Shown here in pieces: positions 20,020 through 30,800 of a stretch of DNA of 64,000 bases. How positions within the stretch are numbered: position 1 is the first letter of the stretch; every line of letters begins with the position of its first letter. Below the pieces are notes generated by a model, which saw only the letters and a list, made by a program, of their open reading frames with translations, searched no databases and was not told the origin of the DNA. The stretch covers positions 1-64,000 of the forward strand of contig JAUILA010000021.1 of assembly GCA_030432655.1 (NCBI GenBank), written 5' to 3'. The DNA is from Bacteroidia bacterium. Lineage in GTDB: Bacteria; Bacteroidota; Bacteroidia; Cytophagales; Cyclobacteriaceae. The position numbers and the translations under genes are program-made.

Positions 20020-20032
20020 CAGGAGGGGATGT

Positions 20033-20156
20033 ATGTACAGTTGGAGAATTGAGCATACAGCGTGCGTGGGTCAAAAAGTCTGTCATCCCCGTCTATGTAC
20101 AGTGGGAGAATTGAGCATACAGTGTGCGTGGGTCAAAAAGTCTGTCACCCCCGTCC
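20033..20156 (+). repeat. 62-bp tandem repeat, 2 copies (same family as 30367..30800)
   Basis: Unit atgtacagttggagaattgagcatacagtgtgcgtgggtcaaaaagtctgtcacccccgtct repeated at 20033 and 20095. Confidence 0.9.
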
Positions 20157-20354: not shown

Positions 20355-20416
20355 TGTCCCCACGCCCTGTTTTTGTTCCCTGTCACCCCACGCCCTGTTC
20401 TTCTTCCCTGTCACCC
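20352..20416 (+). repeat. 27-bp tandem repeat x2 containing the ctgtcaccc core
   Basis: cacgccctgtttttgttccctgtcaccc followed by cacgccctgttcttcttccctgtcaccc. Confidence 0.7.
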
Positions 20417-20422
20417 GGATAT

Positions 20423-21211
20423 TTACTCCTTCTCCCCCTTCCGATCCATGGTTTTCATCAATAAGTCAAGTTTTTCTTCCAGGGCAATAATGCGTTCCTC
20501 GGTCCGTGATGGTGCCTTCATGTGTTCGCTGTAATAGGCCCGGACTTTCCAGATTTCCAGCAGGGCATTCCTGGAGTAATGCAGGATGTCAAAAGCCGGG
20601 TCGTCCGTTTTGAAGGTCAGGTTTTTGTTAATATCGCTCAACCGGCGTACGCGGATTGCATCATCTGTAATCAGCACATACAAGGTTCCCACTTCGAGCA
20701 TATCTTCCTTTCTAACCCGGTCACATAAAAGAATATCCTGATGGTGAATCCCGCAGTTTTCATATTCCATCTCCTTCCCGTCTACCTGGAAGGCCCGTGT
20801 TTTTTCAAACTGTGTGAATGGAAACTGGAAGGAAGGGAGGGAGTTGATAAAGTCTTTGTTCTTATGGCTTACAATATATTCGGTCATCTTATCGATCAGG
20901 ACCAGCGGGGTTTGTTCTTTGAGAAGATCCTTGTCAAGGATGACTTCACTTTCCGTCTTCGCCTTTCCACCTGCAGAGAATAGGTCAAACTTATATAATT
21001 CATTGATTGTGAGTTCTTTGGTGAGAAGGGCGTCAGTACTGATTTTAAAATGCTTCGCTATTTCTATGAGCGTATCTATTTTTGGTTCGGACCGGCCTTC
21101 TTCATAGGCTCCCACACTTGGTCGGGCTAAATTGAACAGCTGAGCAAAATCTGCCTGACTCATTTTCTTCACTGAACGTATTTTTTTGATGTTTTTCCCA
21201 ATTTTTGACAT
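20423..21211 (-). CDS. XRE-family HTH transcriptional regulator with LexA/cI-like S24 domain carrying substituted catalytic residues (Ser to Glu, Lys to Arg)
   Basis: N-terminal HTH_XRE (KKMSQADFAQLFNLARPSVGAYEEG). C-terminal region aligns to LexA VSGMSM...VKRL as VDGKEM...VRRL. Confidence 0.7.
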   Translation of the reverse strand: MSKIGKNIKKIRSVKKMSQADFAQLFNLARPSVGAYEEGRSEPKIDTLIEIAKHFKISTDALLTKELTINELYKFDLFSAGGKAKTESEVILDKDLLKEQTPLVLIDKMTEYIVSHKNKDFINSLPSFQFPFTQFEKTRAFQVDGKEMEYENCGIHHQDILLCDRVRKEDMLEVGTLYVLITDDAIRVRRLSDINKNLTFKTDDPAFDILHYSRNALLEIWKVRAYYSEHMKAPSRTEERIIALEEKLDLLMKTMDRKGEKE

Positions 21212-21450
21212 GTGAATATTTTTTTTCTTTTGTGTAACCTCTTAAGAACTAGTACGTAAATATAAGTAATTAGTTGCTCAAAAAAATAGCAATGACAAAA
21301 AAAGTAGCATTATTTAATTTTATTTATTACTTTTAGAATTAGATGCGAGGCTACATTCAGTATTAGTATACTTTTTATGATTTCCCTCGGGAGTCAAAAA
21401 TATAATTAATACTTTCAATCGATTTATTCACCTCTAACTCAAATCAACCT

Positions 21451-21852
21451 ATGAACGAATACTTCAAAAAAGTACGGGATTACCTGCTGGACCTAAACTA
21501 CAACATCAGCTATGAAGCTGAAACAGACGGTGTCATCGTCGTGGATGAACAAAGTGCAGGAGTGCAAAATCTGGTACTTGGGGTAGCAGACCCGATCCTG
21601 ATCATCGAACAGTTCATTCTGGAGATCAATGGCAACAGTGCAGAAATCTATCGCAGCCTTCTTCAGAAAAACCGCGACATCATCCATGGAGCCTTCGTGC
21701 TTGATGAAAGCGGCACCAAAGTGATTTTCCGGAATACCCTGGAACTTGAAAATCTTGACCTGAACGAACTGGAGGCGTCCTTTAATTCGCTCAGTCTGCT
21801 CCTAAGTGAGTACTCAAACGAACTAATCCAATTTTCTAAGAAAAAACAATAA
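21451..21852 (+). CDS. YbjN/YjfI-like small cytoplasmic protein (putative sensory-transduction regulator fold)
   Basis: 133 aa, acidic. Pattern resembles YbjN-like domain proteins. First gene of the pspA operon, 11 bp upstream of pspA. Confidence 0.4.
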   Translation: MNEYFKKVRDYLLDLNYNISYEAETDGVIVVDEQSAGVQNLVLGVADPILIIEQFILEINGNSAEIYRSLLQKNRDIIHGAFVLDESGTKVIFRNTLELENLDLNELEASFNSLSLLLSEYSNELIQFSKKKQ

Positions 21853-21862
21853 ACATACGATC

Positions 21863-22591
21863 ATGAAAATCTTTAAACGACTATTCAAAATCGGCCAGTC
21901 CGAGGCCCATGCAGCTATAAACAATCTTGAAGATCCCATTAAGCTGACCGAACAGGGTATCCGCGATATGAAGGAAGACCTTGATAAGGCGCTTAATTCA
22001 CTGGCCCAGGTGAAAGCCATGGCCATCCGTGCCCGAAAGGATGCGACCACCTACTCGGAAAAAGCGGAAGAGTATGAGGGAAAAGCGGTGACTTTGTTAA
22101 AGCGTGCTCAAAGTGGTGACATTGATTCATCCGAGGCAGACAGGCTGGCCACCGAAGCCCTTGCACAGAAAGATAATAATCTTCAGCACGCTTCCCGCGC
22201 ATTGGGAGAGCAGACGAAATACGAAGAATCAGTTGAAAAGCTTGAAAGCAATGTCAACCGGCTCAAGTCAACCATTAATCAGTGGGAGAATGAGTTGAAA
22301 ACACTCAAGGCACGCGTCAAAGTGAGTAACGCAACCAAGAATATCAACAAGCAAATGGCGCAGATCGATTCCACGGATACGATCTCCATGCTGGAACGAA
22401 TGAAGGATAAAGTTGCTCAGGAAGAAGCACTGGCCGAATCCTACGAAGAGATGGCCAACGAATCCAGAAGTATCGATGAGGAAATCGATCGTACCCTGGA
22501 GGAGTCCGGTAAATCCGACAAAGCCCGTGAACTGGAAGCTTTGAAGGAGAAACTTGGAATAAAAAAAGAGGACAGTTCTGACAAAGAATAA
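21863..22591 (+). CDS. pspA: PspA/IM30 (ESCRT-III-like) family protein
   Basis: 242 aa all-helical. Alignable with E. coli PspA over the full length (N-terminal amphipathic helix, coiled-coil hairpin). Confidence 0.85.
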   Translation: MKIFKRLFKIGQSEAHAAINNLEDPIKLTEQGIRDMKEDLDKALNSLAQVKAMAIRARKDATTYSEKAEEYEGKAVTLLKRAQSGDIDSSEADRLATEALAQKDNNLQHASRALGEQTKYEESVEKLESNVNRLKSTINQWENELKTLKARVKVSNATKNINKQMAQIDSTDTISMLERMKDKVAQEEALAESYEEMANESRSIDEEIDRTLEESGKSDKARELEALKEKLGIKKEDSSDKE

Positions 22592-22597
22592 TTAATC

Positions 22598-23221
22598 ATG
22601 GGCGAATTACTTGAGGCGGCACTTTCACCAGCAAACCTGGTGATTACAATCCTGGCGGTTTTTGTAGTGATCTACTGGATCACCGTGATCATCGGCCTGG
22701 TGGATGTCGACCTGTTTGATCTCGACTTAGATCTTGACATGGACGTCGATGCCGACGGAATTTCGGTCGGCTGGCTCAACTCGGCCCTTGCCTTTTTCAA
22801 CCTGGCACAGGTGCCCATCATGATCTTCCTGAGTTTCCTTATCATTCCGGCCTGGGGCCTGATACTAATCGTTAACAATGCATTAGGGATTGAATCCTTC
22901 CTGCCCGGATTGCTGGTACTTATTCCTGTATTCATCATCAGTTTGTTCATTGCCAAATTCATGACAATTCCCTTTGTGAAAATTTTTGGGAAAATGTCAG
23001 AGGAGAAGGAGAATGAAGTGGTCATTGGCAAAGTCTGCGAAGTTATTGTTCCCACGAGGGGCAGTAAAGTCGGACAGGCGCTTGTAACAACAAACGGGGC
23101 ACCCCTGCGACTGAATGTCTTTACAACAAAAGGCATCGAGTTGATCAAAGGGGATAAAGGCCTGGTCATTGAATACCAGAAAGAACGAAATATTTATTTA
23201 ATCGAACCTTATAACAATTAG
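22598..23221 (+). CDS. YqiJ/NfeD-like inner-membrane protein (TM N-terminus, acidic DLDLD stretch, C-terminal OB-fold)
   Basis: Multi-TM N-terminal half. C-terminal VIGKVCEVIVP...GQALVTTNGAPLRLNVFT...GDKGLVIEY resembles the NfeD OB-fold. Sits immediately upstream of a flotillin gene as in yqiJK. Confidence 0.6.
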   Translation: MGELLEAALSPANLVITILAVFVVIYWITVIIGLVDVDLFDLDLDLDMDVDADGISVGWLNSALAFFNLAQVPIMIFLSFLIIPAWGLILIVNNALGIESFLPGLLVLIPVFIISLFIAKFMTIPFVKIFGKMSEEKENEVVIGKVCEVIVPTRGSKVGQALVTTNGAPLRLNVFTTKGIELIKGDKGLVIEYQKERNIYLIEPYNN

Positions 23222-23223
23222 AA

Positions 23224-25395
23224 ATGGCAACAAATGTAACGATCGTTTTAATTCTGGTCGGCGTTATCCTCGTAATCGGGATATTGTCGCTCTTTATTAA
23301 AATGTATAGAAAAGCTGTCCAGGGCGAAGCACTCATCAGGACTGGTGTTGGCGATGCAAAAGTTTCATTCTCCGGAATATTTGTCATCCCGGTAATGCAC
23401 AAACTGGAGGTTATGGACATCACCCTCAAAACGGTCAATATATCGAGAATGGGGAAAGATGGTCTCATATGTAAAGACAATATGCGAGCCGATATCAAGG
23501 TGAGTTTCTTTATCCGTGTAAACAAAACCACGGAAGATGTAATTCATGTAGCACAGTCAATCGGATGTCAGCGCGCTTCGGATATTCAGCAACTTGAAAT
23601 GCTGTTTGACGCAAAATTCTCCGAGGCCTTAAAAACCGTAGGTAAGCACTTTGACTTTGTGGAACTCTATAATTCACGAAGCAAATTCAAGGAAAAGATC
23701 CTGGAAGAGATCGGTACGGACCTCAATGGCTATGTGCTGGATGATTGCGCCATAGATTATGTGGAGCAGACATCGATCCTTGATCTTAATGAACAAAATA
23801 TCCTTGACGCACAGGGTATCAAGAAGATCATTGACCTGACGGCCGCAGAAAAGGTGAAGTCCAACCTGATCGAGCGGGAAAAGGAAAAGACCATTAAGAA
23901 GCAGGACGTGGAGGCGCGCGAAACCATTCTCCAGCTGGAAAGGCAGCTTGCGGAGAAGGAAGAGCAGCAGAAACGTGAAATTGATAACATCAAGGCCCGT
24001 GAAGAAGCGGCGATTGCCAAGGTGCGTGAGGAGGAACGTCTCAAGTCCGAAAAAGCACGAATTACCACCGAGGAAGAACTTGGGGTAGCCGAGGAGAACA
24101 AACTCCGTCAGATCGTAGTGGCGCAGAAGAGTAAGGACAAAACGGAAGCGGTTGAAATGGAGCGTGTGGAACTTGCCCGTGCCCTGGAGGCAACCGAACG
24201 CGAGCGGGTGGTTGAGCTGGCGCAGATTGATAAGGAGAAGTCCCTCGAAGTGGAGCGCAGAAATATCCAGGAGGTTATCCGTGAGCGCGTGACCGTGGAG
24301 AAGGCAACAGTGGAAGAAGAGGAAAAGATCAAGGATACACGCGCGAAGGCTGAGGCTGATCGTAATAAGATGGTGGCGATTACGCTGGCCGAACAGAATG
24401 CCCAGGAGGCGCTTGTTAAAGAGATCAAATCGGCCGAAGCTGCCAAACAGTCGGCAGAACATCTTGCTGAAAAAGCGCTGGTGGATGCACAAGCGGAGAA
24501 ATCAGCGGCCGAACACCGCGCAGAAGCCATGAAGACCATGGCCGAAGCAGAAGCCGCTCAGAAAGCAGCTTTAGGTATGTCCGAGGCACAAGTCATGAAA
24601 GCCAAGGCAGAAGCACTCGAAGAGCAGGGTGAGTCGGAAGCCTCCGTGATCGAAATGAAAGCAGAAGCCGAAGCCAAAGGAATCCGGGCCAAGTCCAACG
24701 CGCAGGCGGAAGCCGAAGAGCGCCTCGGATTTACCGCAGCCAAGGTAAACCGGGAGAAAGGGCTTGCCAATGCCGAGGTGACGGAAGTTCAGGCAGCTGC
24801 CGACGAGAAGAAAGGCCTTGCCGACGCCAGGATCATGAAGGAGAAGTTCGCCGCGGATGCAGAAGGCATAAAAGCCAAAGCGGAAGCTATGAAACTCTTC
24901 GACGACCAGGGTATCCTTCACGAAGAGTTTAAGTTACAGCTTGAAAAAGACAGGACGATCGAACTTGCTCATTTCGACATTCAGAAGTATGTGGCAGAAG
25001 CACAGGCGAAAGTACTGGGAGAAGCATTCAAGGAAGCCAACATCGATATCATTGGTGGGGAGTCCATGTTCTTCAACCAGATCGCGGGCGCCATTGCCAA
25101 TGGTAAGTCGATCGACGGACTCGTCAATAACAGCAAAGTGCTGAGCGATATCCGCCATACCTTTTTAGGAAGTGAAGGCGGATCTGACTTCAAGCACAAG
25201 ATCGGTGAATTGCTTAAAAGCTTTAATGTGACCAGTGATGATGTGAAGAATCTCACCATTTCTGCGATCCTCTTTAAGCTCATGGGCAAAGCCGATAATG
25301 CCGACCTGAAGTCAAACCTTCAGCAAATGATGAGCATAGCCAAGTCTGCGGGACTCGATAAGGAGACCCCGAGATCATTGGGACTGGCCGTTTAA
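23224..25395 (+). CDS. flotillin-like SPFH/band-7 protein (YqiK/FloT-type) with long Ala/Glu/Lys-rich coiled coil
   Basis: N-terminal TM anchor, SPFH domain, about 350 aa of EA-rich heptads. Start is 3 nt after the upstream stop. Confidence 0.8.
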   Translation: MATNVTIVLILVGVILVIGILSLFIKMYRKAVQGEALIRTGVGDAKVSFSGIFVIPVMHKLEVMDITLKTVNISRMGKDGLICKDNMRADIKVSFFIRVNKTTEDVIHVAQSIGCQRASDIQQLEMLFDAKFSEALKTVGKHFDFVELYNSRSKFKEKILEEIGTDLNGYVLDDCAIDYVEQTSILDLNEQNILDAQGIKKIIDLTAAEKVKSNLIEREKEKTIKKQDVEARETILQLERQLAEKEEQQKREIDNIKAREEAAIAKVREEERLKSEKARITTEEELGVAEENKLRQIVVAQKSKDKTEAVEMERVELARALEATERERVVELAQIDKEKSLEVERRNIQEVIRERVTVEKATVEEEEKIKDTRAKAEADRNKMVAITLAEQNAQEALVKEIKSAEAAKQSAEHLAEKALVDAQAEKSAAEHRAEAMKTMAEAEAAQKAALGMSEAQVMKAKAEALEEQGESEASVIEMKAEAEAKGIRAKSNAQAEAEERLGFTAAKVNREKGLANAEVTEVQAAADEKKGLADARIMKEKFAADAEGIKAKAEAMKLFDDQGILHEEFKLQLEKDRTIELAHFDIQKYVAEAQAKVLGEAFKEANIDIIGGESMFFNQIAGAIANGKSIDGLVNNSKVLSDIRHTFLGSEGGSDFKHKIGELLKSFNVTSDDVKNLTISAILFKLMGKADNADLKSNLQQMMSIAKSAGLDKETPRSLGLAV

Positions 25396-30366: not shown

Positions 30367-30800
30367 ATGTACAGTTGGAGAATTGAGCATACAGTGGGCG
30401 TGAGTAAAAAAGTCTGTCACCCCCGTCTATGGACAGTTGGAGAATTGAGCATACAGTGTGCGTGGGTTAAAAAGTCTGTCACCCCCGCCTATGGACAGTT
30501 GGAGAATTGAGCATACAGTGCGTGTGAGTAAAAAAGTCTGTCACCCCCGTCTATGTACAGTTGGAGAATTGAGCATACAGTGTGCGTGGGTTAAAAAGTC
30601 TGTCACCCCCGTCTATGTACAGTTGGAGAATTGAGCAAACAGTGGGCGTGAGTAAAAAAGTCTGTCACCCCCGTCTATGTACAGTTGGAGAATTGAGCAT
30701 ACAGTGTGCGTGAGTAAAAAAGTCTGTCACCCCCGTCTATGTACAGTTTGAGAATTGAGCATACTGTGTGCGTGGGTCAAAAAGTCTGTCACCCCCGTCC
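30367..30800 (+). repeat. 62-bp tandem repeat array, 7 copies, two alternating unit variants
   Basis: Copies start at 30367, 30429, 30491, 30553, 30615, 30677 and 30739. Variants differ at gtgggcgtgagtaaaaaa versus gtgtgcgtgggttaaaaa. No unique spacers. Confidence 0.9.

Follow-up and report, generated by a model that had tools for sequence, protein, structure and literature searches.

We describe here a regulator gene on the reverse strand of a 64,000-nucleotide stretch of DNA (hereafter, the window) from Bacteroidia bacterium, a member of the Cyclobacteriaceae in the Cytophagales (GenBank assembly GCA_030432655.1, contig JAUILA010000021.1, positions 1–64,000). The gene lies head-to-head with an operon that encodes a CesT-like protein, PspA, and two membrane proteins, and its product combines an N-terminal helix–turn–helix (HTH) domain with a C-terminal domain of the S24 (LexA/UmuD/cI) fold. 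The protein is likely to be a dedicated, non-cleaving, probably oligomerizing repressor of this Psp-like envelope-stress operon, with a signal different from RecA causing its release. Its catalytic dyad is replaced, its position opposite the operon is conserved among relatives, and a palindrome predicted to be its operator recurs in the intergenic region that the two share. For the comparisons, one genome per species was scanned (309 relatives), and the best 80 loci were kept by regulator similarity alone; these 80 and the window make up the 81 loci referred to below.

The regulator carries a Cro/CI (XRE)-type HTH that was matched in Pfam by HTH_3 (E 4e-10) and HTH_19 (E 1.9e-9) and in the PDB by the HTH domains of PezA, ImmR, CylR2, and P22 C2. 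The match to Peptidase_S24 (PF00717) over residues 134–219 scored 32.5 bits, where the gathering cut-off is 23.3. In NCBIfam, which contained no specific family for the protein, the HTH was matched only in part and UmuD only below threshold. The structure predicted with AlphaFold2 from an alignment of 40 relatives (A1) had a mean predicted local distance difference test (pLDDT) score of 84, with blocks above 90 across most of the C-terminal domain. In this model, the five HTH helices (residues 3–14, 19–25, 30–37, 45–54, and 59–64) are followed by a disordered linker, two short helices (106–124), a beta-domain (138–227), and a C-terminal helix (236–261). Linker residues 76–89 had pLDDT values below 50, and the linker sequence was not conserved. 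When the model was compared with the PDB using Foldseek, it was matched to the full-length lambda repressor (E 9e-7), the LexA proteins of Thermotoga and E. coli, phage 186 CI, UmuD', and the LexA C-domains of M. tuberculosis, the last with a template modelling (TM) score of 0.74 normalized to the target and a root-mean-square deviation of 2.4 Å. The S24 fold is therefore assigned by Pfam above its cut-off, by profile–profile alignment with hhalign (described below), and by Foldseek TM scores of up to 0.74. The C-terminal helix, in contrast, is absent from LexA, UmuD, and cI. On inspection of its sequence by eye, its hydrophobic residues were spaced in a 3-4-3-4 pattern (I241, L244, L248, L251, and M255), and Pro234 and Glu245 were invariant (81/81). 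A role of this helix in oligomerization or partner binding would be consistent with these features.

The residues at the catalytic positions were located with two alignment methods. Used as a family profile, A1 matched the E. coli LexA structures (E ~1e-4), with residues 142–217 falling on LexA residues 111–181; a phmmer search of the PDB with the C-terminal half alone gave no useful match, and the family profile was required. When A1 was compared by hhalign with a reference alignment made up of E. coli LexA, UmuD, and lambda cI, the probability was 90.5% (E 1.4e-6). In the reference sequences, the positions of LexA Ser119 and Lys156 and of UmuD Ser60 and Lys97 were checked. In this alignment, QVDGKEM was placed on RVSGMSM, QDILLCDR on GDLLAVHK, and DDAIRVRRL on DDEVTVKRL, so that Glu147 occupies the position of LexA Ser119 and Arg189 that of Lys156. 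The hmmsearch alignment likewise placed Arg189 on LexA Lys156, UmuD Lys97, and cI Lys192. The two methods disagreed on the register of the Ser motif, the ungapped hmmsearch alignment placing Glu149, and hhalign Glu147, on Ser119; this counts against our interpretation, as do the points on the window operator gathered further below. We prefer the Glu147 register because some relatives have the canonical GDSM at exactly G145-x-S147-M148. In both registers, a Glu occupies the Ser119 position, and no Ser or Thr occurs within RAFQVDGKEMEYENCGI (residues 139–155). The regulator thus has neither the Ser nucleophile (G-x-S-M) nor the Lys general base (V-K-R/K-L) of peptidase family S24.

These substitutions are not peculiar to the window protein. 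In a profile-based alignment of the window protein with its 80 genomic relatives (n = 81), position 189 was Arg in every sequence, position 190 was Arg in 80, and Met148 was kept throughout, while position 147 was Glu in 49, Asp in 22, Ala in eight, and Ser in two (Glu or Asp in 71/81). The dyad substitutions are a family trait and no sequencing accident. A HMMER search of 1.84 billion cluster representatives identified 335 sequences at E 1e-30 or better; among the best 150 of these, nearly all spanned most of the profile and approximately ten were truncated. Across 265 collected members, Ser147 was present in 21 and Lys189 in 11, and from these counts the dyad appears to have decayed inside the family, with a few members still in the ancestral state. 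Just one member of the 265, P0084 (positions 54–857 of locus L082), retains both dyad residues, with GDSM and V-L-K-R at the two motifs; this relative is possibly still active and a marker of the ancestral state. The contig of P0084, like those of P0215, P0230, and P0125, is too short to show the upstream neighbors.

The site at which LexA-type proteins are cut was also missing. No conserved Ala-Gly or Cys-Gly scissile site, which in peptidase family S24 lies approximately 35 residues before the Ser, was found in the family alignment, where the equivalence of the Ala-Gly segment to the LexA site was judged by eye. After a conserved P-L-V, the A1 alignment and the model have a helix that ends in the invariant Tyr112 and is followed by the motif NKDFI. 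The window protein's own Ala80-Gly81 falls in the disordered linker and is not conserved. Because the Ser nucleophile, the Lys base, and a conserved Ala-Gly are all absent, the LexA/cI self-cleavage mechanism appears to be unusable, and the regulator, as judged from its sequence, is a protein that has kept the S24 fold and lost LexA/cI self-cleavage. A sequence-only reading of the window had proposed that the C-terminal half aligns block by block with the LexA autopeptidase domain, that Ser and Lys are replaced (GMSM to GKEM and VKRL to VRRL), and that the protein is a pseudo-peptidase incapable of self-cleavage, relieved by another signal or serving in dimerization. The hhalign alignment recovered the same blocks residue for residue, and the codons GAG (Glu147) and CGC (Arg189) were read directly from the DNA. 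The check proposed in that reading, a formal S24 profile alignment, was run, and no such alignment put a conserved Ser or Lys elsewhere. The functional part of the proposal is supported by the alignments, the family conservation, and the predicted fold.

The genomic position of the regulator gene was highly conserved. In 80 of 80 loci, the gene was divergent from the CesT/PspA gene set. PspA was encoded in all 79 loci with a sufficiently long contig, the 80th (L044) ending within the CesT-like gene; the CesT-like gene lay beside the regulator gene in 76, and both membrane-protein genes were present in 71. The genes downstream of the regulator gene varied and were conserved only in the closest relative. 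The named loci all belong to the Cytophagales and cover at least eight families, the taxa being Hymenobacteraceae, Fulvivirgaceae, Roseivirgaceae, Cyclobacteriaceae, Catalimonadaceae, Cesiribacteraceae, Flammeovirgaceae, and Reichenbachiella. Even a distant member, P0246, whose S24 domain falls below Pfam detection, is divergent from CesT–PspA. In the 80 loci, neither SOS nor phage genes adjoined the regulator gene, and no protease gene was conserved next to it. A tblastn search of 50,697 phage records yielded no full-length counterpart; only the HTH was matched, over at most 27% of the query.

The intergenic regions between the regulator gene and the psp genes share a 15-bp palindrome, GCTCAAAnTTTGAGC. 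K-mer and dyad counts on the 81 regions singled out GCTCAAA and GCTC-N7-GAGC. The pattern GCT[A/C]-N7-[G/T]AGC, with an AT-rich center, occurred at 118 sites in the 16.5 kb of intergenic DNA (74 of 81 loci) and at 40 sites in the other 1.145 Mb, an approximately 205-fold intergenic enrichment; several of the outside matches were recurrent coding positions. Most of the loci thus have a predicted palindromic operator near the regulator's own gene, as is typical of XRE regulators. When 70 loci were anchored on the first site (O1), a fixed architecture emerged, GCTcAaanttTGAGC-ann-TCTaaAACTTTnng-TAnnnTTg-nnn-cGTAAA, in which a second, weaker palindrome (O2) starts 18 bp after the first and a TAnn(n)TTG box is preceded, 20 nucleotides upstream, by the TTTG of the first site. 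The promoters of Bacteroides and Flavobacterium have a −33 TTTG and a −7 TAnnTTTG element. When the sequence is read by eye against these elements, a putative promoter directed into the operon would have its −33 element covered by site 1 and its spacer occupied by site 2. This arrangement favors repression, because in most relatives the predicted sites cover both the −33 TTTG and the spacer.

Further features of these regions are consistent with binding by an oligomer that is matched to its sites. Among the 46 loci with two strict sites, nearly all of them from Hymenobacter, a further site (O3) was located 83–84 bp from the first in 38; this distance corresponds to eight helical turns and suggests looping between bound dimers. 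In a distant member of the family, a changed, perfect palindrome, GCCAATCTTATTGGC, occurs at the equivalent place, with the TAnnnTTG...TGTAAAGCTA context unchanged after it, which is the pattern expected of a co-evolving protein–DNA pair. CGTAAA was present in 67 of the 81 intergenic regions and mostly follows the putative −7 element; the (T)ACGTAAA box may represent the transcription start region or the site of a second factor.

The picture in the window itself is less uniform, and it is here that the remaining points against repression arise. In the clade formed by the window and loci L002–L004, unlike in most other loci, the operators are found between the TACGTAAA box and the operon. Their end is approximately 19 nucleotides upstream of a candidate −7 box, an arrangement that an activator would fit too. 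This box, TACTTTTA, is 19 nucleotides downstream of the second operator, and at its place L002, the closest relative, carries a perfect TACTTTTG. Taken by itself, the window gave no significant result for the motif (three matches, with 1.77 expected when one mismatch was allowed), so that the support for the operator comes wholly from the 81-locus comparison. No convincing candidate for the regulator's own promoter was found by eye.

These points bear most directly on the possibility that the regulator is an activator of the psp-like operon, bound just upstream of the −33 region and contacting RNA polymerase. Lambda cI at PRM and ClgR at the mycobacterial clgR–pspA operon are precedents for such a role. 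Measured from the candidate −7 box, the operator centers in the window clade would be at roughly −39 and −57, a class-II-like placement, and among the known Psp regulators, both PspF and ClgR act as activators (PMC11237479). In the 70 other loci, however, the second site is inside the spacer and the first on the −33 TTTG of the inferred promoters, so that a bound protein would occlude the polymerase. The operator placement in the window fits repression and fits class-II-type activation also, and, with the other loci taken into account, we regard activation as unlikely. A perfect match to the operator pattern, GCTATTTCTATGAGC, was also observed at positions 21057–21071, inside the HTH-coding region of the regulator gene, the main operator being approximately 220 bp away. 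The closest relative alone has this match at the same codons (L002, position 7141), and it is probably a coding-sequence coincidence, or it may be an auxiliary site.

If the regulator is a repressor, its action can be pictured as follows. It would bind as a dimer, through its HTH, to the 15-bp palindromes in the shared intergenic region (in the window, the operator and its degenerate tandem copy listed in Table 1), as the symmetry of the palindrome and the fold suggest. The position of the operator implies that the bound protein would repress the operon and probably also its own gene. The S24 domain without its dyad, together with the extra C-terminal helix, could supply dimer and tetramer contacts. 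With these, the tandem sites could be bound cooperatively, and in most Hymenobacter loci a loop could form to the third site. Induction would then follow from a non-proteolytic membrane-stress signal, for which a protein partner encoded in the operon is, speculatively, the most plausible source.

With self-cleavage excluded, the signal would have to act by partner binding, a ligand, or trans-proteolysis. We tentatively suggest, as a possibility and not as an expectation, that the S24 domain, the C-terminal helix, or both are the receiver for the Psp system in a partner switch linked to PspA or CesT. PspA feeds back on PspF in Proteobacteria, and a switch of this kind is the most attractive of the options because of that feedback and because PspA is the one invariant neighbor of the regulator. 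In one version, free PspA, a member of the ESCRT-III superfamily, would bind the regulator as a co-repressor, and membrane damage would draw PspA off and release the operon. In another, the CesT-like chaperone, freed from PspA under stress, would act as an antirepressor.

Trans-proteolysis offers a different route to release, in which a stress-activated protease removes the repressor and the S24 domain serves only as a dimerization module and degradation target. ImmA cuts ImmR, IrrE cuts DdrO, and Clp and Lon degrade other repressors. Such a route would suit the loss of self-cleavage, and the long linker, which is disordered in the model (residues 76–89), would be a plausible cut site. IrvR of Streptococcus mutans, described as a LexA-like protein that answers environmental stress outside the RecA paradigm, would be a precedent (PMC7101444). 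In view of the lack of a conserved protease gene beside the regulator gene in the 80 loci and the poor conservation of the linker sequence, we consider this route improbable, and more so than activation.

A functional, self-cleaving SOS or prophage repressor, as implied by public annotations that name some relatives "LexA family transcriptional regulator" (NCBI) and by the HTH–S24 architecture with its above-threshold Pfam match, is very improbable given the absent Ser, Lys, and Ala-Gly site, the Psp neighbors in 80 of 80 genomes in the place of SOS or phage genes, and the lack of a full-length homolog in the phage records. The prophage-repressor reading was rejected on the synteny and the phage search, and the divergent synteny, together with the conserved palindrome in between, argues that the protein is a dedicated regulator of the Psp operon. 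The coordinates of the features discussed are given in Table 1.

Table 1. Regulator gene, predicted control elements, and divergent operon in the window
Feature	Position	Strand	Basis
Regulator gene, 262 amino acids: XRE-type HTH, linker, S24-like domain without dyad, C-terminal helix	20423..21211	-	Open reading frame list, Pfam, AlphaFold model
HTH_3 (Cro/CI-type) DNA-binding domain, residues 8–61	21029..21190	-	Pfam E 4e-10; PDB matches
S24 (LexA/UmuD/cI) fold domain without catalytic dyad, residues 134–219	20555..20812	-	Pfam, hhalign, Foldseek
C-terminal helix, residues 236–261, heptad-like hydrophobic pattern	20429..20506	-	AlphaFold model; heptad pattern by eye
Codon GAG, Glu147, at the LexA Ser119 nucleophile position	20771..20773	-	hhalign register; DNA read directly
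Codon CGC, Arg189, at the LexA Lys156 general-base position	20645..20647	-	hmmsearch and hhalign; DNA read directly
Predicted operator GCTCAAAAAAATAGC, fitting GCT[C/A]-N7-[G/T]AGC	21276..21290	.	Comparative motif
Putative second operator GACAAAAAAAGTAGC, a degenerate tandem copy offset by 18 bp (start to start)	21294..21308	.	Found by eye; 18-bp offset as for O1/O2 in the 70 anchored loci
Conserved TACGTAAA box	21253..21260	+	CGTAAA conservation
Candidate Bacteroidota-type −7 element TACTTTTA (consensus TAnnTTTG)	21328..21335	+	Inferred; sequence read
CesT_Tir_1/YbjN-like chaperone-fold protein, first gene of the divergent operon	21451..21852	+	Pfam CesT_Tir_1 E 1.5e-56
PspA/IM30 family protein	21863..22591	+	Pfam PspA_IM30 E 3.5e-40
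207-amino-acid membrane protein, no family match	22598..23221	+	Syntenic in 71/80 loci
723-amino-acid N-terminally anchored, coiled-coil-rich membrane protein	23224..25395	+	Synteny

The head-to-head arrangement with the pspA operon and the repeat block next to the regulator gene, both pointed out in the sequence-only reading, were both found to be present, the operon beginning with the CesT_Tir_1/YbjN and PspA_IM30 genes of Table 1. CesT/Tir–PspA operons with band-7/flotillin and YqiJ/YuaF-type membrane proteins have been described (PMC11237479). The 207- and 723-amino-acid proteins occupy the YqiJ/YuaF-type and band-7/flotillin slots, respectively, of such operons, and the likeness is one of position (PMC11237479). 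Both genes are strongly conserved, and neither protein had a sequence match in Pfam, NCBIfam, or the PDB. The 723-amino-acid protein has a mean column identity of 80% over its N-terminal 260 amino acids in 21 species; its identification as a flotillin found no support in searches of Pfam, NCBIfam, and the PDB, one of them made with a profile of 21 sequences. The regulator gene of one distant family member has its end overlapped by a gene for a PLDc_2 (phospholipase D-like) protein (L083, 2163–2846); phospholipase D genes have been noted in some CesT–PspA–flotillin operons (PMC11237479). Two Cyclobacteriaceae metagenome-assembled genomes, L014 and L022, have no CesT-like gene, and their operator region is separated from pspA by a microsatellite of the heptamer GGTCACT, which runs for several hundred bases in L014 and as shorter, interrupted runs in L022.

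The repeat block consists of members of a dispersed 62-nucleotide family. Immediately downstream of the regulator gene, at 20032–20155, there are two tandem copies, and a further five occur approximately 10 kb away, at 30377–30791, with none expected by chance; the family looks like an intergenic repeat of the repetitive extragenic palindromic (REP) or miniature inverted-repeat transposable element (MITE) kind. Separately, a 28-nucleotide tandem duplication (CCCCACGCCCTGTT..TTCCCTGTCA) at 20358–20413, which occurs nowhere else in the window, ends ten bases below the stop codon of the regulator gene (20423–20425).

Compared with known systems, the regulator shares with LexA, UmuD, and lambda cI the C-terminal fold and the conserved blocks around both catalytic positions, and with lambda cI also the N-terminal Cro/CI-type HTH. 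It differs from all three in having no nucleophile, general base, or conserved scissile bond, and nothing evident ties it to RecA or DNA damage. Among repressors of the CI type, those that do not cleave themselves and are inactivated by antirepressors include phage 186 CI, with its antirepressor Tum, and the repressors of the Gifsy prophages. Like these, the regulator combines an HTH with a C-terminal domain of predicted oligomerization function and appears incapable of self-cleavage, and 186 CI was also among the Foldseek matches. Those proteins, however, are prophage immunity repressors, whereas the regulator described here is chromosomal and fixed beside a stress operon.

Within the same phylum, the "non-canonical LexA" of Bacteroidota (Sanchez-Osuna et al., Nucleic Acids Research 2021; PMC8565304) has a PF01381 HTH and an S24 domain with conserved Ala-Gly and Ser-Lys, binds the motifs CTAA-N5-TTAG and GGA-N5-TCC, and controls SOS genes (dinB/umuC, umuD, and others). 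Extensive paralogy of LexA in Bacteroidota, with motif divergence among the paralogs, has also been reported (PMC8565304). The regulator has the same two-domain architecture and predicted sites in its own promoter region, and its G-CT[C/A]A-N5-T[G/T]AG-C core resembles CTAA-N5-TTAG in having 4-bp arms and a 5-bp spacer; some loci read literally CTAA-N5-TTAG, such as GCTAACTTTATTAGC in L045. This shared geometry suggests that the regulator may be a diverged paralog of the Bacteroidota LexA. Unlike in the non-canonical LexA, however, the two dyad positions of the family are occupied by Glu/Asp and by Arg and the Ala-Gly is absent, so that the catalytic signature is missing; the regulator also has an extra C-terminal helix, a helical insert before the beta-domain, and a tie to the PspA operon. 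Nor did it resemble that protein in SOS control, its predicted sites being of the GCTCAAAnTTTGAGC type and no SOS genes being adjacent in the 80 loci, which are the scope of this comparison.

The Psp regulators known to date are PspF, acting with PspA in Proteobacteria, ClgR with PspA in Actinobacteria, and LiaRS in Firmicutes (PMC11237479). The regulator shares a Cro-like HTH with ClgR. In contrast to PspF and LiaRS, no AAA+ domain was found in it and it is not a two-component system. ClgR, an activator, is small, consists of the HTH only, and has its gene inside the operon, whereas the regulator has 262 amino acids, an S24-like domain, and a divergent gene. In the text of the survey of Psp systems (PMC11237479), the terms "S24" and "LexA" occur zero times, and no S24-type regulator is given for the CesT/Tir–PspA class. 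The literature searched, the coverage of which was incomplete, likewise contained no description of an S24-type Psp regulator or of an S24 pseudo-peptidase repressor. Non-catalytic homologs of S24 domains and non-cleaving CI-type repressors are already known. What appears not to have been described in the literature searched is an S24-fold regulator, lacking the dyad, that would control a PspA operon.

PspA systems are widespread, and their regulators are known for few phyla only (PspF, ClgR, and LiaRS); the present analysis provides a strong candidate regulator, with a predicted operator, for the CesT–PspA class across a whole order of Bacteroidota. It also suggests that the proteins that carry the label "LexA family" or "S24 peptidase" in these genomes do not regulate the SOS response and are not peptidases, which matters for annotation and for reconstructions of the SOS regulon in Bacteroidota. 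The family would be a natural case in which the self-cleaving scaffold of LexA and cI was kept for its fold and its chemistry discarded, and the transition is traceable because rare relatives still carry GDSM, the Lys, or both. If the partner switch proposed above is correct, an autoproteolytic switch would have been turned into a partner-switching one, and the Cytophagales would represent a third independent solution to the feedback control by PspA, besides PspF and ClgR.

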